Source of the DNA: Dictyostelium discoideum
Taxonomy: Eukaryota
Reading direction: 5' to 3'
NCBI GenBank assembly: GCA_000004695.1
Contig: CM000151.3
Span: forward strand, 4,288,001 to 4,352,000
DNA: 64,000 bases
Position 1 is the stretch's first letter. Every line of letters starts with the position of its first letter. The position numbers were made by a program, and so were the translations under genes. Under the pieces are notes generated by a model that worked only from the letters and a program-made list of their open reading frames with translations, did not search any database and was not told the origin of the DNA. Shown piece after piece: positions 37,935 through 56,320 of this stretch.

Positions 37935-40900
37935 GTAATAATAATACTTTATGTGTATCTACAAGTGGTGGAAGTAGTCATCAAGATATTAATAAAATTG
38001 ATCCAAGACAACAACATTCAATTTTACATAAGATTGGATTTAGATTAGTAGATTTTGATTATACAAAACTACCATTAAAGAGATTAGGTAAATCAAATAA
38101 TCTCCTATTGACAGTTTATCTTTCGCCACATATACCATCACAAAGTAGTTTAGATGGTGATAAATATTATTTACCATCAGTATTATTAAAGAATTTCGTA
38201 TATGACCTTTGGGATACATCTTATTTGACAGAAAAAGTTAATAGAAAACCAGATGAAGATCCAGAATATGGAAGAGCATTGGAACAAATCGAATTACGTG
38301 AAAAGATACCATTGTTAGATTTACCATGGGGTGCAGGTAAACCATGGACATTAGTTGACCTCTATGAGGATTATGATGAAGAATTATTGGAACGTTGTTA
38401 TAGAGAAGTCATGGTACCAAGTGTGAAACATAGTGAAATTCCTTCACTTGGTAACGTTTTAAGGGCAATGTCTCCCGAGGGTGATGATTCATCCTATCTA
38501 CCAGATGTTCATGTCCTTTTAGCAGTACGTTGGCCAACTGATTTCCATAAGGATGGCAATTCATCATCGCCAATCATCGATGGTCTTTGTGTTTTCGAAT
38601 ATCATACCGAACAAAATTGTGGAATACTCACTCATTTAATTTTACAAAAAAAGAATAGAACATCATTGAATGATGGTTTGGATAGTTTATTAGTGGATAG
38701 TGCCGTAGATATCCTTGATACCAATGCAAGAGAACGTGGTAATTTGGCAGGTTGTAATGCAATTTTCATTCATATTAAAAATGCCCCAACTTCACCAGTT
38801 AGTCCAGATGTTGTTGATATTTGTCAACATCATATGGTATTATATAAAATGGGATTCAAACTTTTAGACTTTGATTTCTATATACCACCATTGGATTTTC
38901 ATTCAGCACCAAAGAAAATGATGTTAGGTTTATTCATTACACCATTGATCCCAAAATCAAATGAAAAAGGTGATCGTCCATTCATTCCATCAAATCTATT
39001 GAAATTATTTGTTGAACTTCAATGGAATAATGCTTTTGGTTCAGAACAAATTAAGAATTCACCAAATACCTACTTGGAATATCAACGTATGATTGAACAA
39101 ATAGAATTACGTGAACGTATTTCATTATCGGATTTACCATGGGATGCAGGTAAACCATGGACATTGGTTGATCTATGGGAAGATTATGATCAAGAGTTAT
39201 TGGAACGTCTATACAAAGAGATTATGATACCAAACTTTTCAAATAAACACGAATTGGAACCATTGGATAATTGGTTACAAGCATTTACTTCAGAGAATCG
39301 TGATGATCCAAACATTTCCGATCTTCATATACTATTGGCACTTAGATGGAGCGATAATAGTTCACAACCAATCATTGAGGGTGTTATCATCTTTGAATAT
39401 TTCTCTGCAAATAATTGTGGTCTATTAACTTATTTAATCGTTCAAAAAACATTTAAAGGTAAAGGTTTGGATAGAATCCTCGTGGAAACAGCAATTGAAA
39501 TCCTAAATCAAAATGCAAAGAGTCAAGGTTTCCTTCCAGGTTGTAATGCAATCTTTTTGGAGGTTTACAGTGGTGAAAAGGTAACTTTGAAACAAGATGT
39601 AGTCGATCCACGTATGAGACATTCCATCTATCATCAAATTGGATTTAGATTGATAGATTTCGAATATGTTGCACCACCATTAGCTTTGACTTATCCAAAG
39701 TTAAAACATTTCCTTCTCACAGTTTATCTTACCGAACATATTCCAAAGATGCCATTGGAGGAGGGCAAATATTATTTACCAAGTAGCGTTTTAAAGAATT
39801 TTATCACCGTCCTTTGGAAGAATGCAATTGCAACCAAGAAAATCATTAAACAACCACAAAGAGATTCAGATTATGTTAGAATGGTCGAACAGTTTGAGTA
39901 TCGTGAAAAAATACCATTGTTAGATTTACCATGGGGTGCAAGTAAACCATGGACATTGGTTGATCTTAGAGACGATTATGATGAGGATCTTATGGTACGT
40001 TTTTACAATGAGTTGATGTTACCAAATTTCCCAGTGAAAAATGAATTGGAACCATTATCAAATTTCATTAGTGCTCTCTCTGAAGAGAGAAGAGAATCAT
40101 TCAATCCACATTTATCAGAGGTTCATGTTTTATTGGCATTGAGATGGCCAACCGATTCATCCGATTTACAACCAACCATTGGTGCTGGTATTATTTTCGA
40201 ATATTTTTCAAATACCAATTGTGGTTTACTTTCCTATTTGGTGGTACATCGTTCTTCAAGAGGTCAAGGTTTGGCTGGTATTTTGGTTGAACGTGCAGTG
40301 GAACTATTGGATAAACATGCAAAAACTCGTGGTCAATTGGCTGGTTGTAACTGTATTTTCTTGGAAACCAATTCTGCTGAAAAAGTAACCGTACAACAAG
40401 ATGTTATGGATCCACGTATGAGACATACTATCTATTATAAAATGGGTTTCAGAATGATCGATTTCGAATATATTATGCCACCACTTTTTCAAGGTTTTGA
40501 AAAATTACGTGGTGTACTCTTATTGACAGTTTATTTAACTCCTCATATTCCCTATCAAGATGTCAATGGCAAGAAACAATACTATCTACCAAATGTTTTA
40601 TTAAAGAATTTCATCTCTTCACAATGGGAGAATGCATTCCGTAATTCACGTCTCTCTGTTAGACCAAGTCAAGATATCGATTTCACAATGTCATTGGATC
40701 AATTGGAGATTAGAGAACGTGTACCACTATTGGATTTACCATGGGGTGATGGTAAAGATTGGATGATAGTTGACCTTTGGGAAGATTATGATCAAGAGTT
40801 ATTGGATGCTTTCTATAAAAAGTATATGATCACTCAGTTTGGTACTTCCGATGAATTAGAACCATTAGAGAATTGGCATAAAGCTCTCTCAACCGAGGGT

Positions 40901-42064
40901 CGTGATGATCCTAATATTTGCGATCTTCATGTCCTATTAACATTGGGTTTGCCAGGTGAACATAAAGGTAAAGGTCATAAATATATCATTGGTGGTTTGG
41001 TTTTCGAATATTATCCAGAGACAAATACAGCATTGGTCACTTACTTGGTTGTAAATCAACGTTGGTCCGGTAAAGGTATTGGTACTGACTTAATTTTACG
41101 TACTCTCACAATTCTCGATCAAAATGCAAAACAAAAAGGTCATATAGCCGGTTGTAATGCAATTTTCTTGGAAGTTATGTTCTTACCACAATCGGGTGAA
41201 TCAGACTCTTCATTGAGTCATGTTTTCCTTTTCAATAAAGGTTTCCGTTTATTGGATTTCGAATATTATCAACCACCAACCTCTTTAAGAAATCCAAAAT
41301 CAAATAATGTTTGTTTAACCGTTCTATTGACTCCACGTATTCCAAAGCATGGTGTTGGTAGTGAAATTCAACCATTTGTACCATCTTCTTTGTTACGTTC
41401 ATTCATTACAACTCTATGGGAAGATGAATGTGGTTTAATTGGTTATAACTTTGAATCTGATCCATGTTACCTTAGAATGATGGAACAATTGGATGGTAAT
41501 GATTATTTCCATTGTTTAGATTTACCTTGGATTAAACATAGAATCGATCAAAATTCAATCAATCCAAATAATTCCACTCTACCACATATAAACTTTTCAA
41601 ATTCTTTTAATAATTTAAATATTAGTTATTCATCACCAAATCCTGTACATTTAAGAGATTTTAAAAATCAACAACAACAACAACAACAACAACAAGTACA
41701 ACAATTACAACAACAAGTACAAAAAGTACAACAATTGACAGCTGGTACTAATTTAGGTGGTAATAGTTTAAATTCAAGTGGTAGTATTTATAATAATAGC
41801 GGCGATAAAAAATCATCACTACCACCATTACCAAATCCAAATAACCTTAGTAATAATTATGATAGTGATCATCTTACAAAGAATAAAAATTTATTAAAAG
41901 TTTCAACACCAGATGGCAATAGTTCCTCTGCTCCTGGTTCACCAATTTTATCTCCTCAATCAATGAATTCAGTTTTCCCACCAAACGCTCCTTTATCACC
42001 TGCTCTTTATCCTTCAAATTTAAGTAATTCAACATTGGCCCAAAGAGTTACATTGGATAAATAA
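36545..42064 (+). CDS. Giant protein with 5 complete plus 1 partial tandem GNAT-fold (acyl-CoA N-acyltransferase-like) modules. join(36545..36579, 36702..37557, 37652..42064), 1767 aa.
   Basis: ORFs 36841-37674 and 38108-42064 are joined by a GTAAGT...tttttag intron (phase 0), and a short first exon MSSTPNNNNNNK joins via aa|gtaagt...aaatag|g. Each module of about 260 aa carries DLPWG(A/D)GKPWTLVDL(W/Y)EDYD(E/Q)ELLER, then EPL.NW, DPNI.DLH(I/V)LLALRW, IIEGxIIFEY(F/Y)...NCGLLTYL(I/V)V, then an R/Q-x-x-G-x-G/A motif-A region (SRGQGLAGILVERAVELL; SGKGIGTDLILRTL), then GCNAIFLE...DPRMRH.IY.KMGFR.IDFEY..PPL and LLTVYL.PHIP. This matches GNAT beta4-alpha3 (motif A), motif B (Y.K.GF) and the terminal beta strands. 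There are long S/T/P-rich and poly-N (37846-37930) insertions in module 0 and a Q/N/S-rich C-terminal tail. Confidence 0.7.
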
Positions 42065-42519: not shown

Positions 42520-44238
42520 TTTTAATTTTAAATGTAAAAGTTAAGAAACTAACAAAACAATTAAAAATTTATATATAGTTCAGATGCAGGTGAAGCATTA
42601 TTCTTATCAAACTATTTAGATGACCACAAAACCGCAAAACAGAAATCTTGTGTTGATATTGGTGCACCTTTTCAATCATGTGATAAATTATTAGAGATTG
42701 ACTCTAACCTCAGAGATACAGAAGATTTCTTTACATTCACTGGTTTCATCACTGTAAATGAAACTTATAATAGTAATACTTTCTTTTGGTTTTTAGAATC
42801 TCAAAATGGTGATAAAAACTCACCCTTAGTTATCTTTTTACAAGGTGGTAAGTATTTTTATTTTTATTTTTATTTTTATTTTAAAAACAATTTAAAATGT
42901 ATATTAATATTATTTATTTATATTTATTTATATAAAAAAAAAAAAAATATAAAATAGGTCCAGGTGGTGCATCAACTTTTTCACTTTTTGTTGAAACAGG
43001 TCCATATGAACTCCTTGATAATTTCACTTTAGTACAAAGAGAAATTACATGGAATTCAGAATTTGCAATGTTATATATTGATAATCCAGTTGGTACTGGT
43101 TTTTCATTTACTGACTCTCAAGAGGGTTATTCAAATAATGAAGATGAAATTGCAACAAATTTATACACCTTTTTACAACAATTTTATAAACTTTATCCAG
43201 AATATTACACAAATGAATTATATATAACTGGTGAAGTAAGTACAAATCAAATATTTAACATTTTAATTCAATTTTAATACTAATTTTATAAAATAATAAT
43301 AAATAATAAATAATAAATAATAAATAATAAATAATAATTATTTAGAGTTATGCCGGAAAATACATTCCAGCATTTTCATATCACATTATCCAACAAAACC
43401 AAAACTCAAATAATCCAAATATTAATCTTAAAGGTATTGCAATTGGTGACGGTTTATGTGATCCAATTACCCAAGTAACTCAATATGCAAACCTTGCATT
43501 CTATACTGGTTTAGCTGATCTCCAACAACAAGAAGTTATGTTTGAATATCAAGATAAAATTGTTGAAGCAATTAATCAAGAACAATGGTCAGTTGCAAAC
43601 GATTTATTCACTGATTTAATTAATGGTCCACCAGATTATTTCCAAGTAAATATATAGTTTTTTTTATTTCCTATTCTTATATAAATGATTAATTAGTTTT
43701 TTTTTTTTCTTTTTTTTTTTTTTAAAATAAGAATATTACAGGTGAATCAGATTATTATGATATTCGTAAAACTGTTGAACCAACATATGGTGGTGATTTT
43801 ACAGCATTTTTAAATCAATCTTCAATTCGTGCAATGATTCATGTTGGTAATAATTATTTTCAAAATAATAATGATGTTTACATTCATTTAGAACAAGATA
43901 TTCCAAAATCAGTTAAACAATTATTCCCAACCATTTTAGATAATATTAAAGTTATTTTATACAATGGTCAATTTGATTTCATTGTTGGTCCATCTCTCAC
44001 AGAAACAATGATTCGTACTATTGAATGGGAAGGAATTCAACCATTCTTAGAATCACCAAAAATCATTTGGAAAATTCCATCAGATAATGTTGATGTAGCC
44101 GGTTTTGTTAGACAATGGAATAGTTTCACTCAAGTTGTTGTACGTCAAGCAGGTCATATGGTACCTTTGGATCAACCTGCACGTGCTTTTGATATGATAG
44201 ATAGATTTATTAACAATGAACCTTTTCCATCAGGTTAA
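42307..44238 (+). CDS. Serine carboxypeptidase (peptidase S10 family), secreted. join(42307..42455, 42579..42847, 42958..43235, 43346..43645, 43741..44238), about 497 aa. The last acceptor could alternatively be at 43732.
   Basis: Signal peptide MKVSLSFLLTILIVIITIKVNLS. S10 motifs: PLVIFLQGGPGGAS across intron 2, LYIDNPVGTGFSF, the catalytic-Ser motif ITGE|SYAGKYIP across intron 3, and the catalytic-His region VVRQAGHMVPLDQP. Four introns with GTAAGT/GTAAAT donors; all phases close. Confidence 0.85.
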
Positions 44239-44351: not shown

Positions 44352-45848
44352 TTATAATTCAACAAATCCAATATTTGATGGCTTTGATTCTATACCATTA
44401 TAACTTGTAACAACAATACTATATTTTCCATAAGGTATATTAAACATTTTTGTTATGAATTCTGAATTAATTGATCGTTTAATTTTATATCTTAACCATG
44501 TATTATCTGATCTACTGATATAAACAAAGTATTTGATTTTTTGATTACTTTTTTCACTTTTAAAGGAATTTGATTTAAAAGTGATTGATACATCCATATT
44601 AAAATAATATTGTTTTTCAATTGTACAATTGATAATTTGAGGTGGTAATAATTGTTCAAGTTGATTGGTAAATGATAAATTATAAGTTAAGGAGTAATTT
44701 CCATAATCAAGATTATGGTTTTCAACAATAATATAAACATGTTTACCATTTGCTGTCATTCTTAATTGCCTATTATCATTTGATCTATCAATAATAGTGG
44801 TTAAACTTTGACCATATCTAATATTACAACTTCTCATTGAACTATATTTATAATAATTATAAGCTTTTCTTGATTCTAATAAACATATTGAATAGGTGAA
44901 TGGCATAACTCTATTAGCTATTGGATTTATTGACATTGTAATTTCCGTATTACCCTTAACATCACAAGAATATTGATGATATTGATTAAAATTATTATTA
45001 TTAAAACCATTATCTTTTTTAAAATTACAATAATTATTACAAGGTGAATAATCATCATTTCTTAAAAATTCTAAATATGAGTCTAAAAAGTGTAATTGGT
45101 TTATTGATTTAATTTTTTCAATATTATTTTTCAAATAAATTGTATTGTTAATTGAATGTTTAAAAATTGTATTTGAAACGTATGGGTCTGTTATTCTAAT
45201 AGTATCATTATAATATGAATTTACATATCTACGGTAGGTAAATTTATTTATGTTTTGTTTAACATAATCTAAAAATTTATCATCACCAATTGCAGGTTGG
45301 CCAAATGTTACACATGTAATTGATTTTATATATTTTTCATTAAAACGTTGAATTGAGATATCTAAAGTTGCAAAAAATGCAATTACACCGCCAACTGAAT
45401 GACCAGTAAAATAGATATCATAGGGTTTCTCACATGAATCAATAATGCTATATAATTGAATATATAAATCATAATATTCACCTTGAAAACCATTACGAAC
45501 TTCACCACATCCTTTTGGATCAATATAACAATCAACTTTGAAATAATGGGCATTATCTTCGATATTAATTGAATTGTATTCTTTAAATGAAATTATTAAA
45601 TTATTGGTAATGGATGATTTATATGCTAAAATCTTAGAATTATCCAATACAACCTCCCATTCCAAACAATTGTTTTTATCACCTAAAGAAATAAATTGAT
45701 TTTGTTTAACTGCTAATGGATCATATATTAAATCTGAAAAGTATGCAAAAATATAATCTCCATTTTTACCAATTATTGAACTATTTGATCTTTTAAGATT
45801 TATTAATAAATTTATTATCAATATAAAAACTATTGTTTTAAAAAACAT
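44352..45848 (-). CDS. Secreted class-3 (fungal-type) lipase-like protein with C-terminal Cys-rich region and FN3-like domain, tandem paralog 1 (498 aa).
   Basis: Signal peptide MFFKTIVFILIINLLINL. The Lipase_3 nucleophile elbow is YFTGHSVGGVIAFFATL (GHSxG), followed by CVTFGQPAIGD. The C-terminal tail is YSIVVTSYNGIESKPSNIGFVEL. Intronless. Confidence 0.8.
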   Translation of the reverse strand: MFFKTIVFILIINLLINLKRSNSSIIGKNGDYIFAYFSDLIYDPLAVKQNQFISLGDKNNCLEWEVVLDNSKILAYKSSITNNLIISFKEYNSINIEDNAHYFKVDCYIDPKGCGEVRNGFQGEYYDLYIQLYSIIDSCEKPYDIYFTGHSVGGVIAFFATLDISIQRFNEKYIKSITCVTFGQPAIGDDKFLDYVKQNINKFTYRRYVNSYYNDTIRITDPYVSNTIFKHSINNTIYLKNNIEKIKSINQLHFLDSYLEFLRNDDYSPCNNYCNFKKDNGFNNNNFNQYHQYSCDVKGNTEITMSINPIANRVMPFTYSICLLESRKAYNYYKYSSMRSCNIRYGQSLTTIIDRSNDNRQLRMTANGKHVYIIVENHNLDYGNYSLTYNLSFTNQLEQLLPPQIINCTIEKQYYFNMDVSITFKSNSFKSEKSNQKIKYFVYISRSDNTWLRYKIKRSINSEFITKMFNIPYGKYSIVVTSYNGIESKPSNIGFVEL

Positions 45849-46241
45849 TGTTTATTGACAATTAAAATAACACTTGGGTTTTTTTTTAATTTTATATTTT
45901 GTGTGGTTGTGTGTGTTTATATATTAATTAAAAATAAAAATTAAATAAAATTCTCTGTAAATATCCCTATCAATATTAATTATACAAAATTTTAAATCAG
46001 AAAATCTAAATTTAGATCTTAATTACATTTCTTTTTTAATTAAAAATAATAATTAATGAAAATAAAAAAATAAAAATTTCATCATTTAATTTATTAATAT
46101 TAAGTAATCTTTTAAGTGGTGTTTTTAGAAAATTTAATTAAAAGATTTTTAGTAATTTACTAAATTATCTATTATTTTATTTATTTAAAAATTAATGATT
46201 CAGATTAGTTGTTAAATCATTTTTTTCTTTATAATTATAAT

Positions 46242-47810
46242 TTATTTCAGAGTATTTATAAATGCAATATTGGAGGGTGAAGATTGGATATCATTATATT
46301 CTGAAAAAACAACTATACTATATGCTCCTTTTGGGATATCATCTATAGTTTTTGAAAAGTAATTATTATTTTGGTGTGGTCGAATAATTGTCTCTTTATA
46401 TTTTTTCCAGTTTTGCCCAATATTACTAATGAATATATTATATATTGTATTATTAAAATTGTTGTTATTATTATTATGATCTAAATCATTGATACTAAAA
46501 TTAACTTGTAATTTAATAAGATCGTTTTTTATTTCTAAAATATCAGCTGTTAAATTTGTTGGTGGATTTGGAGTTTGATATGGGCTCTTTATTGAAATAT
46601 TATAAGAAAATGAGGATGTCCCTAAAATTGAGTTATGGTTTTCAACTACAACAATAATTTCATTTAAATTTTTAATTCTTTTTGAAACTGATCTAAAATG
46701 TTCTGTCTTATCTACCATTGTTATTGGTTGTTTATAATCTTTATAGTAATTTAAATTACAACTACTAAATAATGTAAAATCATAGTGTTTAAATTGATTC
46801 CTTGATGTAAATAAACATACAGAGTATTTATCAGGTAGAATACCTTTTGGATTAAATTCACCATTGAAAATACATTCATTTTTAACCATACAATGATATT
46901 CTTTAAATTTTGAAAATTTTGCATTCTTTTCAACAAATTTACAATTAGTATTACATTGTGAATAATTTGGATTAAATGTATTTAATAGGTAAAGATCTGA
47001 TGAATGTAAACCCAATGGAAAATTGGGACAACTGTGTTTTTTACAATTTAAAACAATTATTGATTCATCTGCGACCTTTGGATGATAAACATTAAATATT
47101 GACATTATTTCAACAACAGGATCTTCATGATACTTTTTAAAATCAGATGAACGATGTTTATGATTATTAATATTAACGTATCTTCTATAATTTATTTTTT
47201 TAATTGATGATAAAAACAATTTATTAAATTGTTCATCTCCTACTGCAGGCTGACCAAATGTTATACAATTAATAGATTCAATGTTTTTTAAATCATTTTG
47301 ATAAGAATAATATACTGAAGCTAATAATGCAACAGCACCACCAGCCGAATGACCAGTAAAATAAATATCATATGGTTGGTCTAATGATTTTATTATTGAT
47401 AACATTGTATTTTGATTAAAATAAAATTGATCTTGAAAACCAAAATGAATTTTACCACATTCAATATTCCATGGTTTTAATAAAAAACAAGAAATTAATT
47501 TTAAATCAATATCAGATGCAAAATCTTTAAAATAATGAGTTCCTTGAATTGAAATAACCAAGTTATTCGTATATTTTGATTTAAAAATCATCATTTTATT
47601 TTCATTTACAATTATTTCCCATTCTTCACATTCACCATTAATTTTTATTAATTCAAATTTTGAAAATTCTTTATTATTTGTTTTATATACTAAATTTGAA
47701 AAGTAAGCAAATATATGATCTCCATCTTTATTTATTTTTGAAGATAAAATTAAATTTATAAAAATTAATTTAAATAATATAATTATTAAAAATTTTATTT
47801 TAAAAAACAT
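46242..47810 (-). CDS. Secreted class-3 lipase-like protein, tandem paralog 2 (522 aa).
   Basis: Signal peptide. YFTGHSAGGAVALLASV, CITFGQPAVGDEQF, and a C-terminal FN3-like YSIVVFSEYNDIQSSPSNIAFI. Confidence 0.8.
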   Translation of the reverse strand: MFFKIKFLIIILFKLIFINLILSSKINKDGDHIFAYFSNLVYKTNNKEFSKFELIKINGECEEWEIIVNENKMMIFKSKYTNNLVISIQGTHYFKDFASDIDLKLISCFLLKPWNIECGKIHFGFQDQFYFNQNTMLSIIKSLDQPYDIYFTGHSAGGAVALLASVYYSYQNDLKNIESINCITFGQPAVGDEQFNKLFLSSIKKINYRRYVNINNHKHRSSDFKKYHEDPVVEIMSIFNVYHPKVADESIIVLNCKKHSCPNFPLGLHSSDLYLLNTFNPNYSQCNTNCKFVEKNAKFSKFKEYHCMVKNECIFNGEFNPKGILPDKYSVCLFTSRNQFKHYDFTLFSSCNLNYYKDYKQPITMVDKTEHFRSVSKRIKNLNEIIVVVENHNSILGTSSFSYNISIKSPYQTPNPPTNLTADILEIKNDLIKLQVNFSINDLDHNNNNNNFNNTIYNIFISNIGQNWKKYKETIIRPHQNNNYFSKTIDDIPKGAYSIVVFSEYNDIQSSPSNIAFINTLK

Positions 47811-47942
47811 TTTTAATTTAAATAATTATATAATTTTTTTTTTTTTATTTTTTTTAAATAATTATTTTTATTTTTTTTTTTTTTCTGAACATTTAAAAAT
47901 AATTATTTTTATTCCACGTTTATAAAAAAAAAAGTCTTTTTT

Positions 47943-47976
<34 letters not shown>

Positions 47977-48030
47977 TTAAAAAATAAATAAAAATAAAAT
48001 AACAGATTTAATAATTATTTATTATAAATT

Positions 48031-49566
48031 TCAAATTATTTTATTTTTATTATCTAATCCATTAACAAAACAATAATTAGAAGTTTTGGATTCTATTCCA
48101 TTATCACTTGTAGATACAATACTATAAAGACCATCTTTTTTAAGATTTTTTATAATTTCATTTAATTCTATTTTTGATAATGGTTCAACAAATTCATATT
48201 TAATCCAATCTTTTCCAATTTCACTTAAATAAATATTATATTTCATTGTTGGTTGAATTAATGAAATAGTATTATTTGATTTGAATGAAACTGAAATATC
48301 CATTGAATTTTCATTTGTTGAAATTATTTTACATGTTAAATTATTTGGTGGTTGTGGTACTTGAATTGTACTAATGAATGAAATATTGAAAGCAAGAGTT
48401 GAAGTTGAAAAGAATAAATTATGATTCTCTACAATTATAAATAAATCAGAACCAGAAACAGTCATTTCAAACTCCATTGCATTTGTTGTTTTATCAATTA
48501 AAATATTAGATTTACCACCACAAATATTATTTTGACTATATTCATATTTATTAAAATCATCTTTATTTGTAAAAATACAAACTGAATATTTATCAGTGAA
48601 AAAACCAGAACCTGGATAAAAGTGACCTTTAATTGTCGATTCTGAAGATGATGGACAATGATAAACTTGTTTTTTTGTAATTTTTGGATTTTGGAATAAA
48701 AAATTACAATTTGAATTACATTTTGAATATTTATCATTATAAAGTTTATCTTTATAAAGATCCAAGAAATGTAAACCTAAAGAGTAATTTGGACAATCAT
48801 TATTACAATCTAATAGAATTGGACTATTATTTGGATGTGGTACCGATAAGAAATTCACTACTGGATCTTCAATGGTTTTATTATTATTTAATTGTGCAAT
48901 ATTATTAATATTAATATAACGACGATACTGAAATTTATCTAATTTTAAATTTGCAAATTTATTAAATTCAAAATCACCAATTGAAGGTTGTCCAAAAGTT
49001 ATACAATTAATAGAATGAATTATATTGAGATCTTTATGATTTGTAACATAATCCAATGATGCTAATAATGCAGTTGAACCACCTAATGAATGACCAGTGA
49101 AATAAATATCATATTGTTGATCTAATTTTTTAATTGTTGATAAAAGTAATAAACTAATTTCATTATATTTCTCTTGAAATCCATTACGAATCTTTCCACA
49201 ACCGCCACCTCTACCACTACCACCACCACCCCATAAATCATTATTTACTATTAAATTACAATTTGAATATTTGATATCTAAATCAGCTTTTATATCTTCA
49301 ATACTGCTTGTACCTTTGAATGAAACCACAACAGTATTACTAAATTTTGATTTCCAAATATCCATTCCACTACTATCAATTATAATTTCCCATTCCATAC
49401 ATTTCTCATTCAATTGTAAATATTCATTTCCTGTTATCGGTCCATAAACTGTATCTGAAAAATATGCAAATAAAAAATCACCTTCTTTTTTAATTATTGA
49501 ACAATTTATAATTGCAAGTATAATTAAATTTATAAATAATAATAAAGTTATTTTAAAATTTAACAT
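48031..49566 (-). CDS. Secreted class-3 lipase-like protein, tandem paralog 3 (511 aa).
   Basis: Signal peptide. YFTGHSLGGSTALLASL, CITFGQPSIGDFEF, and a Gly-rich insertion WGGGGSGRGGGCGK before the lipase core. C-terminal YSIVSTSDNGIESKTSNYCFV. Confidence 0.8.
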   Translation of the reverse strand: MLNFKITLLLFINLIILAIINCSIIKKEGDFLFAYFSDTVYGPITGNEYLQLNEKCMEWEIIIDSSGMDIWKSKFSNTVVVSFKGTSSIEDIKADLDIKYSNCNLIVNNDLWGGGGSGRGGGCGKIRNGFQEKYNEISLLLLSTIKKLDQQYDIYFTGHSLGGSTALLASLDYVTNHKDLNIIHSINCITFGQPSIGDFEFNKFANLKLDKFQYRRYININNIAQLNNNKTIEDPVVNFLSVPHPNNSPILLDCNNDCPNYSLGLHFLDLYKDKLYNDKYSKCNSNCNFLFQNPKITKKQVYHCPSSSESTIKGHFYPGSGFFTDKYSVCIFTNKDDFNKYEYSQNNICGGKSNILIDKTTNAMEFEMTVSGSDLFIIVENHNLFFSTSTLAFNISFISTIQVPQPPNNLTCKIISTNENSMDISVSFKSNNTISLIQPTMKYNIYLSEIGKDWIKYEFVEPLSKIELNEIIKNLKKDGLYSIVSTSDNGIESKTSNYCFVNGLDNKNKII

Positions 49567-49790
49567 TTTAAAAAAAACAATTATTAATAGAATATTATTA
49601 AAAATTATAATTGGTAATTAATAAAAAATATTTTATTCTATTTGAAAAAAAAAAAAAAAAAAAAAAAGAAACATTTTTTTCAATACGAATTATTCTTTTT
49701 TTGTTTTATGTAAATAGGTACAATTGTAATTTCTAAATTTTTCTTTTTTATTTTAAATTTTTAATATATTAATATGATAGCTTACATGAA

Positions 49791-49828
<38 letters not shown>

Positions 49829-50138
49829 AATATGGTAATTACTACTTATTTATCATTTATTTAATCTCTATGAATCTAATAAATTTTAAAATAATTACTA
49901 TATCAAAATTTTACACACATCCACAAAAAAAAAAAAAAAAAAAAAAATGAAAAATGAAAAACAGAAATAAAAAAATAAAATAAAATTTTATACAAATAGG
50001 GTTTTGTTACTAAAAAAAAAAAAAATTAAAAAAAAAAAAAATAAAAATAAATTTTAAAAAAATTTAAGGGAGTTGTATAGGGAAATAAAAAAAAAAGTAA
50101 AAAAAAAAGAGGTAACTACTGACCAGTCCTCATAGAAT

Positions 50139-50220
50139 CACTTTTTACCACTTTAATTCCGAAATTATTATGTCTGGATGGACCATTTTTTTTCACTTTT
50201 TACCACTTTAATGGTGAAAT
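50139..50220. repeat. Two direct copies of the ACTTTTTACCACTTTAAT motif, 55 bp apart (50139-50158 and 50194-50214).
   Basis: cactttttaccactttaatt and cactttttaccactttaatgg, read directly. Confidence 0.6.
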
Positions 50221-50682
50221 TTTTTTTATCCGACCAACCTTATCATCCTTTTATTTTTAATTTTCTTTTTTTAATTTTACCATAAAAATATGTTCACATT
50301 TAATTGGAACATATGTATATTTTCCATTTTCCTTAATCAGGTATAATTTTATCAATATCTTGAGTACCAATAGTTTTGAGTCATATTGATTCCTTTTTTT
50401 TTTTATTTTTTTTTTTTAATTATTTTCTTTTTTTTTTTAATTTTTTATTTTTTTATATTTTTGAAATTTTACCCATTATTATATTATATTTAATTATTAT
50501 AATTTATTAATAACTTTATCCTATTTTATTTTATTTTATTTTATTTTACTTTTGTTATTTTTAAAATTTATTATATATTACAATATAATTATATATAAAT
50601 AAAATTTTTTTTATTTTTTTTGGACAAAAAAAAAAAAAAATAAAAAATGTTTTATTAATTTTTAATTAAAAAAAAAAAAAAA

Positions 50683-50785
50683 AGTGCTACTAAATTTTTA
50701 ATTAATTAAAAAAAAAAGTGCTATTAAATTTTTAATTAATAAAAAAAAAAAGTGCTACTAAATTTTTTATTAATTTAAAAATAAA
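50683..50785. repeat. Tandem repeat, 3 x about 34 bp (agtgctactaaatttttaattaattaaaaaaaaa), in the ORF-free gap within the lipase array.
   Basis: Three consecutive copies with 2-3 substitutions, read directly from the sequence. Confidence 0.8.
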
Positions 50786-51160
50786 AAAAATACTCAAAAC
50801 CTTAAATCTAAATCTCACAAATAAATTGTTTAATTAATCAAAAAAAAATAATAATAATAATAAACCTCATACAATAATATTAGTTTGCCAGCAAAAAATT
50901 GTAAAATTAAAAAATAATAAAAATAACAAAATATAAGAGTTTTTTTCTATTTCAAATACAAAAAATATTCTTTAAAATTTTAATTTATTCACTATTTTTC
51001 CAATTATTTTATTAATATATAAAAAAACTAATTTCTTATTTTCATGAGTGGATAGAATAAAAAAATTTAAACTAAATAGATATTAATCAATAGAATATAA
51101 GAATTAAATCTTGATTATTTTATTTGTTTTTTTTAATTTTATTTTCCCAAACATTAATTG

Positions 51161-51192
<32 letters not shown>

Positions 51193-51291
51193 GTTTGTGG
51201 TGGGGGTGATAATAAAAATAATAAATCTATTTTTTTTTTTTCAGATTAAATAATTTTTTTTAATTTTTTATATTTATATATTTAAAATAAT

Positions 51292-52830
51292 TTAAATTAA
51301 TGTTGAATTACCAAAAATGTAAGCAAAATTAGAAGCATGTGATTCAGCTCCATTGTCAGCAGTAACAACAATACTATAAATTCCATTCATCGGAATGTTT
51401 AAAAATTTTGAAACAAATTTAGTTGTTGCAGATTCAATGAATTCAAACTTTGACCATTCTTTACCAATTTCACTTAAATAAACCCTATATATAATTAAAT
51501 TATATAAACTATAAATGTGTTGTGGTAATTGGTGATAGTTAAAAGAGACCATAATACCAATTGTATCATTTTTTAAAGATGACACAGTACAAGATAAATT
51601 TGTTGGTGGTGAAGGTGCAGTAATTGAATTTGTAAATGTGATATTATAAGAGAATGACGAAGTTGCGAATAAATTATTACGATTTTCAACAACCACATAT
51701 AACTCTTTGCCTTGTAATACCTTTTTTTCAAACATAGTTCTATTTGATGTTTTTTTAATTATAATTGAAGTTGCATTTGAATTTGTACCTGATTTCAAAT
51801 TACAATCAGTTGATTGTTTATATTCATATTGATCGAAATCTTGAGCTGAAGTGAATAGACACACAGAATATTTATCAGGCATGATACCTTGTGGATTGAA
51901 TGATCCCTTGATTAAAGACTCCTTATTTATTGGACATTTGTAGGACTGATATTTATAAATATTTGCATTGGATTCTTCAAATTTACAATTTGAACTACAT
52001 TCCGAATAATGTTGATTAAAAACATTACCCAAATATAAATCCATGAAATGTAAACCCAGTGGTACCATTGGACACCTGGTTTTTAAGCAGTCCAACATGA
52101 TGGCATTGGTTGGGTGTGAGAATATTGAATTTGGGATGGGATCTTCTTGAGGTGATAGACCGAGTATGGCCGTTTTACTATTATAATTTACATAACGACG
52201 GTATTGGAATCTTTGGGAGTAAAACATCAAACTGTTGGAAAACTGCTCATCGCCCACAGCCGGTTGACCAAAAGTAACACAGTGGATTGATTTAATGTAT
52301 TTTTGTTTTTGTCTTTGATTCACTGTATAATCATAGGCGGCAATCAATGCCAATGCACCGCCTAGTGAATGACCGGTGAAATAGATATCATATGGTTGAT
52401 CTAGTGATTTAATAATTGATAAGAGGATATCATAAGTTTCGTAATACTCTTGTTGAAATCCATAATGAAGTTTACCACATCCACTTGTAATATTACATGT
52501 TGTTGGTACAATTTTAATATCTGTAATAATATCTGAAAATCCTTGTGTACCTCTAAAAGAAACTATTAAATTATTACTAAATTTCGATTGAAATATCATA
52601 ATTCTACTATGATCTAATATTATTTTCCACTCCATACATTCTCCATTTAATGAAATGTATTTATATTGTTCACTATTGGTATTTGTTGATTTTGGCATAT
52701 AAACAATATCTGATAATAATCCAAATAAATAATCACCATCTTCTTTTATAATTGTTCCATTATTAAAATCTATTAGATAATTTAAAATTAATAAAAATAT
52801 AAATAAAATAATTTTAATTTTAAAAATCAT
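51292..52830 (-). CDS. Secreted class-3 lipase-like protein, tandem paralog 4 (512 aa).
   Basis: Signal peptide. YFTGHSLGGALALIAAY, CVTFGQPAVGDEQF, and a C-terminal YSIVVTADNGAESHASNFAYIFG. Confidence 0.8.
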   Translation of the reverse strand: MIFKIKIILFIFLLILNYLIDFNNGTIIKEDGDYLFGLLSDIVYMPKSTNTNSEQYKYISLNGECMEWKIILDHSRIMIFQSKFSNNLIVSFRGTQGFSDIITDIKIVPTTCNITSGCGKLHYGFQQEYYETYDILLSIIKSLDQPYDIYFTGHSLGGALALIAAYDYTVNQRQKQKYIKSIHCVTFGQPAVGDEQFSNSLMFYSQRFQYRRYVNYNSKTAILGLSPQEDPIPNSIFSHPTNAIMLDCLKTRCPMVPLGLHFMDLYLGNVFNQHYSECSSNCKFEESNANIYKYQSYKCPINKESLIKGSFNPQGIMPDKYSVCLFTSAQDFDQYEYKQSTDCNLKSGTNSNATSIIIKKTSNRTMFEKKVLQGKELYVVVENRNNLFATSSFSYNITFTNSITAPSPPTNLSCTVSSLKNDTIGIMVSFNYHQLPQHIYSLYNLIIYRVYLSEIGKEWSKFEFIESATTKFVSKFLNIPMNGIYSIVVTADNGAESHASNFAYIFGNSTLI

Positions 52831-53855
52831 GATTATTGTAATATTTTTTTTTTAGGTTAATTAATCTATAGATTTTTAAAAATAAAAAATAATAGAATTA
52901 CAATTTATAAAATAAAAAAAAAAAAAAAATTGTTTAAATAAAAAATAAAAATAATTAAAAAAAAAAAAAAAAAAAAAATGATTTAAATTAATAAAATAGT
53001 AGTGTGAGTGTGAATGTTTGAAGATTTTAAGTGGATGTAATTATTTTTTTTATAAAATAATAAGCCCAATTAATGAGATATATATAGAAATAAAAAACTG
53101 AAAATAATTAAACAAAAACAAAAATCAAGATATGTGACATATCAAATTAAAAAATAAATTAAATTTTTTGTTTTACAATTATATATGATAGATATACTAC
53201 TGGTTTTTTGTTTAAAAAAATAAAAAAATAAAAAAAAATAAAAAAAAATAAAAAAGAAAATAAAAAAAAAATAAGAAAAATAAAACTTACCACTATGTGG
53301 GTTAAATAATTTGTGTAAAATAAATTTTTGATAATAAGTTTGTAATTTGAATTATTTTAACTATACCTCTCCAATTGGTAGTTTGGAAATCATTAAATAA
53401 TTATATTATTTTTGTTTTATTTATTTTTTTTTTTATAATTGAACACCGCAAAAAATAATTTGACAACATTTTCAAAAATTAAAAATAACAAGAAATAACA
53501 CTAACTCAATTTATTAATAAAGAATCAATAATAATATTAATACCACCAATTTAATTAAAAAATAAAAAAAAAATAAAAAAAAATAAAAAAAAAATAAAAA
53601 TAAGATTATTATTATAAATGACAAATTAAATTTATTTTAATGATCATAATATTATTTCTTCTTCCTTCAATCTTCTCGATTAATCAAAAAAAAAAAAAAA
53701 AAAAAAAAATTAAAAAAATAAAAATAAATCCATCCAATGTCATACTATAAAAAAAAGAATAAAAATAATTTTAGTAAAATCTTAAAAAATATAAACAACT
53801 TTTTTAATTTTTCAAGAAAATATTTAAATTTGAAGGAAAGTTTTAAACATTCAAT

Positions 53856-54085
<230 letters not shown>

Positions 54086-54174
54086 TCTAGATTTAATTTT
54101 TTTTTTTTTAATTTTTTTTTTTTATTTTTTATTTTTTTATTTTTATTTCCAATTCTTACAAATAATAAATATGA

Positions 54175-56320
<2,146 letters not shown>

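Follow-up and report, generated by a model that had tools for sequence, protein, structure and literature searches.

A tandem array of four putative secreted class-3 lipases with a conserved beta-sandwich and FN3-fold module in Dictyostelium discoideum

A 64,000-nucleotide stretch of Dictyostelium discoideum chromosome 2 (GenBank assembly GCA_000004695.1, contig CM000151.3, positions 4,288,001 to 4,352,000 of the forward strand; hereafter the window, with coordinates counted from its first nucleotide) carries a tandem array of four lipase-like genes on the minus strand. In array order, these are paralog 1 (DDB_G0274509, 44352..45848, 498 amino acids (aa), the most divergent of the four), paralog 2 (DDB_G0274881, 46242..47810, an open reading frame (ORF) of 522 aa), paralog 3 (DDB_G0274883, 48031..49566, 511 aa), and paralog 4 (DDB_G0274675, 51292..52830, 512 aa). 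A preceding interpretation made from the letters alone (the sequence-only reading) had described them as locally amplified, secreted class-3 lipases with a Cys-rich linker and a C-terminal fibronectin type III (FN3)-like domain. The four ORFs of 498–522 aa proved intact, each one unbroken despite a genome of ~20% G+C with frequent stop codons (G+C in the window, ~16–37% per 2 kb). Pairwise identity between the four proteins is 37–47%, and the intergenic spacers measure 393, 220, and 1725 bp in array order.

Translations of paralogs 1, 3, and 4 are identical to the RefSeq proteins of strain AX4. The 522-aa ORF of paralog 2 is identical to KAM9945245 from the assembly of another D. discoideum strain, and the AX4 model of DDB_G0274881 (XP_644097, 450 aa) corresponds to residues 73–522 of this ORF; since it begins at Met73, the model misses both the signal peptide and the opening strands of the lipase domain. 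Two models from other species, RB653_002061 (D. firmibasis, 462 aa) and ACTFIV_002902 (D. citrinum, 466 aa), are apparently truncated in a similar way. Databases name all four proteins only as 'hypothetical protein' or 'Fungal lipase-type domain-containing protein'.

All four proteins score above the gathering cut-off of the Lipase_3 family (PF01764; 22 bits), with 60.2, 74.2, 82.7, and 85.0 bits, and, among solved proteins, the lipases of Rhizomucor miehei and Rhizopus are nearest to them in sequence. Both lipase motifs quoted in the sequence-only reading, GHSxGG and C[IV]TFGQP[AS][IV]GD, are present. In paralog 4, the class-3 lipase alpha/beta-hydrolase domain spans residues 30–270 (52021..52743, minus strand) and includes a short lid helix (residues 99–105). 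An AlphaFold2 model of this protein, built on a 20-sequence family alignment, shows three domains (predicted local distance difference test score (pLDDT) 78.9; predicted template modelling score 0.73), and the modelled alpha/beta-hydrolase fold of the lipase domain superposes on solved class-3 lipases. The nucleophile elbow GHS[VAL]GG occurs in all four proteins and is invariant in 20 dictyostelid homologues, its Ser aligning to Rhizomucor Ser144.

The sequence-only reading had itself proposed that the lipase call should fall if the catalytic Asp and His could not be aligned, and we therefore give these two residues particular attention. Across the 20 aligned dictyostelid sequences, S155, D230-P231, and L260-H261..D264.Y266 (paralog 4 numbering) are invariant, and the D, LH, and Y remain so after homologues from Physarum, Pygsuia, and Andalucia are added. 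Native alignments to the profile hidden Markov model (HMM) end at YRRYVN-x-N, before the canonical Asp, with N or S at the position of Rhizomucor Asp203, because the dictyostelid sequences carry an insertion of ~6–15 aa at this point; an invariant Asp within [ETQ]-D-P follows the insertion. When the insertion is excised (12 aa taken out of paralog 4), the family profile runs through Rhizomucor Asp203 to the LHAG motif and the score changes from 64 to 85 bits. A 55-position profile reaching from just upstream of YRRY to past the catalytic-His motif matched only the Rhizomucor lipase in a PDB-wide search, with this D in register with D203. At the aligned Asp position, the Physarum, Pygsuia, and Andalucia homologues have the canonical D-[IV]-[IV]-T-Q-x-PP...GY-x-H, and they appear to be without the pre-Asp insertion, because their Lipase_3 match runs to near the end of the 140-position profile (137–138 in Physarum and Pygsuia, 127 in Andalucia).

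The putative catalytic His (L-H-x-x-D-x-Y) lies after a Cys-x4-5-Cys loop and is invariant in every family member. The Rhizomucor lipase is arranged similarly, with Cys235–Cys244 followed by His257; the assignment of the His is an inference. The candidate triads, all on the minus strand, are Ser151 (45396-45398), Asp221 (45186-45188), and His253 (45090-45092) in paralog 1; Ser155 (47346-47348), Asp230 (47121-47123), and His269 (47004-47006) in paralog 2; Ser160 (49087-49089), Asp234 (48865-48867), and His266 (48769-48771) in paralog 3; and Ser155 (52366-52368), Asp230 (52141-52143), and His261 (52048-52050) in paralog 4. Judged by alignment, the residues of the putative triad are conserved overall, with Ser, Asp, and His invariant in 20 of 20 sequences and the Asp alignable to Asp203 after excision, so that the lipase call stands. 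The clade of paralog 1 has FKEY or FKTY at the oxyanion position, not F[RK]GT, and no longer has the Cys pair that otherwise precedes the putative catalytic His.

Each of the four proteins has one N-terminal hydrophobic segment (Kyte–Doolittle 19-residue maximum 1.9–2.6) and values of at most 1.26 elsewhere. In paralog 4, the predicted signal peptide (residues 1–25; 52756..52830, minus strand) is the sole strongly hydrophobic segment: hydropathy peaks at 2.44 at the N-terminus, the rest of the protein reaching no more than 1.10, and residues 2–23 form a helix in the model. Neither a hydrophobic C-terminal tail nor a conserved xDEL was present in the four proteins by hydropathy and alignment, and the D. 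discoideum proteins end a few residues past the FN3 domain. As far as can be predicted from these sequence features, the four proteins are probably secreted.

The C-terminal part had been described as a Cys-rich linker followed by an FN3-like domain. Its conserved Cys residues were confirmed; what had been called a linker is, according to the models and Foldseek, a folded and conserved beta-sandwich domain. In paralog 4, this disulfide-rich middle domain of ~130 aa occupies residues 275–404 (51619..52008, minus strand) and is followed by the FN3 domain at residues 405–506 (51313..51618, minus strand); the AlphaFold2 model places eight strands over residues 281–400 and seven over residues 410–506. 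Modelling the C-terminal part on its own (pLDDT 79) gave the same picture as the full-length model. In Foldseek searches, the entire C-terminal 245 aa align end to end with two-domain FN3 and cytokine-receptor modules (E ~1e-6), which argues that the middle part is also an Ig/FN3-like sandwich. Five Cys, a Tyr, and the strand motif E-N-x-N (VVVENHN) are conserved in it from Dictyostelium to Physarum, Pygsuia, and Andalucia, and it matched no Pfam family and, by sequence, no solved structure.

The last domain is modelled as a seven-strand Ig-like beta-sandwich that superposes on FN3 structures. The FN3 assignment thus holds at the level of fold; Pfam fn3 (PF00041; gathering 25 bits) gave no match at E<=1 in any of the four D. 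discoideum proteins, the sole Pfam signal in this region being a sub-threshold FNIII-A_GpJ hit in paralog 2. The homologous domains of Physarum and Andalucia pass the fn3 threshold with 37.3 and 32 bits, respectively. As for the motifs quoted for the C-terminal region, YSxC..xC.F and YSIV..T/S..N.[IA][EQ]S are present, and PP.NL.C is shared in part, with PPQIINC in paralog 1 and PPTNLTA in paralog 2. No carbohydrate-binding family was detected in the module by Pfam. A role in adhesion or ligand binding, as put forward in the sequence-only reading, may be considered for the module.

A scan of 1.84 billion representative proteins with a profile of the C-terminal module yielded only 33 matches. 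Eight of the nine matches without FN3 repeats that were examined in detail have Lipase_3 directly upstream of the module; the ninth, P0045, is a 314-aa fragment without a Lipase_3 match. The module was found in Dictyostelia (Synstelium, Heterostelium, Cavenderia) and Physarum and, more weakly, in the breviate Pygsuia and the jakobid Andalucia, where the matches span mainly the middle domain. An FN3 domain after the sandwich is detected by Pfam in Physarum and Andalucia and is covered by the family profile in Cavenderia and Heterostelium. In the non-dictyostelid homologues (P0050 and P0051 of Physarum, P0061 of Pygsuia, P0056 of Andalucia), a Ser/Thr-rich stretch and a hydrophobic or glycosylphosphatidylinositol (GPI)-like C-terminal tail or transmembrane segment follow, which suggests display at the cell surface. 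Judging from these matches, the three-domain architecture is old, extending across Dictyostelia and Physarum, with the lipase-sandwich core present in Pygsuia and Andalucia.

Several of these proteins have further parts. P0050 and P0051 of Physarum carry an extra N-terminal Kre9/KNH Ig-like domain, and P0056 of Andalucia has an additional N-terminal copy of the middle domain without the ENHN motif. P0044 (Synstelium) and P0047 are very long, joining lipase, sandwich, and FN3 to WDR11 beta-propellers or to Kelch repeats and a RING finger; these architectures are probably fused models of neighbouring genes.

We next consider published expression tables, the available portions of which list paralogs 1, 3, and 4. 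According to the k-means table of Kin et al. 2018 (PMC6198379), values for DDB_G0274883 (paralog 3) over 0–24 h are 0.06, 0.25, 1.1, 2.9, 5.8, 25.4, and 44.9; the same extract gives 2.2 for prespore, 0.12 for prestalk, 0.41 for cup, and 1.68 for spore, with 7.35 transcripts per million (TPM) for stalk and a vegetative TPM of 0, marking the gene as stalk-enriched. In the filter_UP sheet of Rosengarten et al. 2015 (PMC4403905, additional file 7), as far as its text extract goes, DDB_G0274675 (paralog 4) is up-regulated on filters under UP_Hr12_gradual, DDB_G0274509 (paralog 1) under UP_Hr18_rapid and UP_Hr20_gradual, and DDB_G0274883 under UP_Hr22_gradual and UP_Hr24_gradual. Columns were assigned by counting tabs in the text extracts and cross-checked by the descending order of identifiers within each column. 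DDB_G0274881 (paralog 2) is listed neither in the extract of filter_UP nor in the accessible parts of the other expression tables examined. The accessible portions of the tables of genes differentially expressed when amoebae meet different bacteria contain none of the four genes, and they were not found in papers on cell-type markers, multicellularity genes, or social genes. Within the reach of these extracts, three copies out of four are developmentally regulated, with onsets staggered at ~12 h, 18–20 h, and 22–24 h.

The local amplification proposed in the sequence-only reading is borne out by phylogeny and synteny. A neighbour-joining tree resolves four clades with 100% bootstrap each, every clade holding one D. 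discoideum gene together with orthologues from D. firmibasis, D. citrinum, and/or D. dimigraforme. D. purpureum has just one gene, which joins paralog 4 at 87% bootstrap, and the Polysphondylium and Acytostelium genes fall outside. D. firmibasis has the same four genes, with order and orientation unchanged, flanked by CDC73 and a large GNAT-repeat gene; these two genes flank the array in the window as well. Taken by tree and gene order, the duplication of the array predates the split of D. discoideum and D. firmibasis and is not recent. Between these two species, the ratio of nonsynonymous to synonymous substitution rates (dN/dS) is 0.16–0.27 for whole genes and 0.13–0.42 per domain; these low values indicate that purifying selection maintains all four copies and each of the three domains.

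On the upstream side, the neighbour is the exon for the CDC73 C-terminal domain (54358-54678, minus strand; E 2e-30); as CDC73 adjoins the array upstream in D. firmibasis too, synteny is confirmed on both sides. On the other side lies the GNAT-repeat ORF (38108-42064, plus strand; 1318 aa), with 4–5 internal repeats of ~290 aa that give weak matches to GNAT acetyltransferases. This ORF ends in a poly-Q/N tail, and its syntenic counterpart in D. firmibasis is modelled as 1685 aa. Between it and paralog 1, the last exon of a serine carboxypeptidase (43834-44238, plus strand; Peptidase_S10, E 7e-25) was identified; no separate gene is called at this position in the D. firmibasis locus (L001). A 117-aa ORF at 53737-54090 (plus strand) consists almost entirely of poly-isoleucine from an (ATT/ATA)n repeat and is almost certainly not a gene.

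A tblastn search of the window revealed neither a fifth copy nor a pseudogene (all other matches E>0.8). The spacer between paralogs 3 and 4 (49567-51291) is unusually long at 1725 bp, the D. firmibasis equivalent measuring 664 bp, and it contains no ORF of at least 45 aa, no tRNA, and no lipase remnant. Near 50690-50775 it carries three tandem units of ~33 bp, each made up of 'aaaatttagtagcac' and a T run.

Among the four proteins, paralog 3 alone carries a Gly-rich insertion, WGGGGSGRGGGCGK, as noted in the sequence-only reading. It comprises G113–G122 (49201..49230, minus strand), is encoded by an imperfect (GGT)n run, and lies in the loop right after the lid helix. The insertion is 5 aa shorter in two further D. 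discoideum isolates and absent from the D. cf. discoideum and D. citrinum orthologues. We therefore rejected a special function for this element, which is a polymorphic (GGT)n expansion absent in sibling species.

Compared with known systems, the R. miehei and Rhizopus triacylglycerol lipases (PF01764; PDB 3TGL, 6QPR, 6A0W) are single-domain enzymes of ~270 aa with a propeptide, whereas the Dictyostelium proteins add the insertion of ~6–15 aa that separates the YRRYVN strand from the Asp, and also ~240 C-terminal residues forming the two beta-sandwich domains. Closer counterparts are Phypoly_transcript_05743, DFA_06504, PPL_07168, GCRY01000826, and ANDGO_06432 (from Physarum polycephalum, Cavenderia, Heterostelium, Pygsuia, and Andalucia, respectively; all uncharacterised), which share the lipase-sandwich core, the Cys pattern, and ENHN with Dictyostelium; the non-dictyostelid homologues differ in having a stalk and a tail or transmembrane segment and no pre-Asp insertion. 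In pancreatic lipase, a C-terminal beta-sandwich mediates binding of colipase and of the interface. The pancreatic lipase family (PF00151 plus PLAT) thus offers an analogous lipase-then-beta-sandwich design within another alpha/beta-hydrolase family, a likeness that we would read as functional analogy only; Pfam gave no PF00151 or PLAT match in the four proteins. Plant EDS1, PAD4, and SAG101 (Lipase_3-like plus EP domain) likewise combine a Lipase_3-type fold with a lineage-specific C-terminal domain and are among the sequence and fold matches.

Taken together, we consider it probable that the array comprises four functional tandem paralogs encoding soluble secretory-pathway class-3 lipases or acyl-ester hydrolases, each with a sandwich and an FN3 domain, which are staggered in development and take part in lipid remodelling. 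The signal peptide would direct each protein into the endoplasmic reticulum and onwards to the cell exterior or a lumen, where a predicted Ser-Asp-His triad under the short lid helix would, going by family membership, hydrolyse an ester lipid; triacylglycerol, diacylglycerol, or phospholipid are candidate substrates. Catalytic competence and enzymatic activity of the four lipases are suggested by their conserved residues. The rigid tandem beta-sandwich could act as a spacer or targeting module that brings the catalytic head to a surface or matrix, given that in homologues outside Dictyostelia the module, or at least its sandwich core, sits between the lipase and a Ser/Thr-rich stalk with a membrane or GPI-like tail. 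The group-4 Dictyostelium copies would have lost this C-terminal anchor. The array had duplicated before D. discoideum and D. firmibasis diverged, and the copies may now differ mainly in developmental onset. Most likely, lipids would be remodelled or mobilised during morphogenesis from mound to fruiting body, rather than prey being digested. A more far-reaching version, which we put forward only tentatively and hold to be rather doubtful, sees in the ENHN sandwich plus FN3 an ancient, undescribed display or targeting module dedicated to lipases; after loss of the anchor, the array would supply staggered extracellular lipases acting on the amoeba's own matrix or membrane lipids, or on lipid signals, in morphogenesis and stalk-cell death.

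Other explanations were weighed against this account. A signal peptide and a lipase domain in a bacterial feeder might equally belong to digestive lipases for bacterial lipids, either targeted to the phagosome or lysosome or released onto prey during vegetative feeding, and the expression data that speak to this cover paralogs 1, 3, and 4. In the extracts analysed, however, these three genes are up-regulated at 12–24 h of development, paralog 3 has no vegetative signal and climbs from 0.06 at 0 h to 44.9 at 24 h, and zero of four genes appear in the bacteria-exposure tables. Developmental induction and zero vegetative expression of paralog 3 make a role in prey digestion unlikely, so that the link to bacterial feeding raised in the sequence-only reading finds no backing in these sources and we regard it as improbable. 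Somewhat better placed, though still unlikely, are matrix esterases: feruloyl-esterase-like or phospholipase-A1-like class-3 enzymes, tethered by the module to the matrix of cellulose and protein in the slime sheath, stalk tube, or spore coat, where they would cleave ester links or membrane phospholipids. Here, the nearest sequence relatives are triacylglycerol lipases, and the C-terminal module is without a detected carbohydrate-binding family.

The four proteins could also be non-catalytic pseudo-lipases in which the alpha/beta-hydrolase fold provides a scaffold for binding, in the manner of EDS1/PAD4/SAG101, with the FN3 module serving adhesion or signalling. The EDS1-family proteins among the structural and sequence matches, the degenerate oxyanion motif and lost disulfide of the paralog 1 clade, and the missing HMM alignment of the His to a solved lipase are consistent with such a scaffold. 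Pseudo-lipases would be expected to have lost triad residues or to be able to spare them, and no family member departs from Ser, Asp, and His at these positions; we consider this explanation very improbable. Overall, the feeding, pseudo-enzyme, and matrix-esterase explanations are less well supported than that of functional, secreted, developmentally staggered lipases.

Several observations nevertheless weigh against that preferred account. HMM alignments stop short of Rhizomucor His257 (that of the short-segment profile at residue 224), leaving the catalytic His unaligned to it. Activity in the paralog 1 clade may differ, with the GT oxyanion motif and one Cys pair lost. For the beta-sandwich module, a function as spacer or in targeting is suggested solely by the architecture of distant homologues, and the expression evidence in the extracted tables spans three of the four genes. 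A literature search by the four DDB_G identifiers and the UniProt accessions returned no mention of the genes.

The lipase call itself is not new, since the genes are already listed in databases as Lipase_3 and one D. firmibasis orthologue is labelled as FN3-containing. What appears undescribed is the fixed architecture of Lipase_3, ENHN sandwich, and FN3, its spread to deep protist lineages, and the staggered expression of the array; literature searches found nothing on Lipase_3 linked with FN3 in amoebae and, for the secretome, nothing relevant to the four proteins. In conclusion, the four are real, conserved, development-induced genes but ordinary uncharacterised members of a known enzyme family, and the practical gain is one corrected reference gene model rather than a new biological principle. 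If the inference holds, Dictyostelium would have a small family of extracellular lipases staggered through development that joins the well-understood fungal-type catalytic domain to a conserved, unannotated sandwich. The array would then offer a tractable haploid model for the roles of extracellular lipases in aggregative multicellularity, and also for how a lipase-dedicated accessory domain found in Amoebozoa, a breviate, and a jakobid contributes to interfacial catalysis or targeting.

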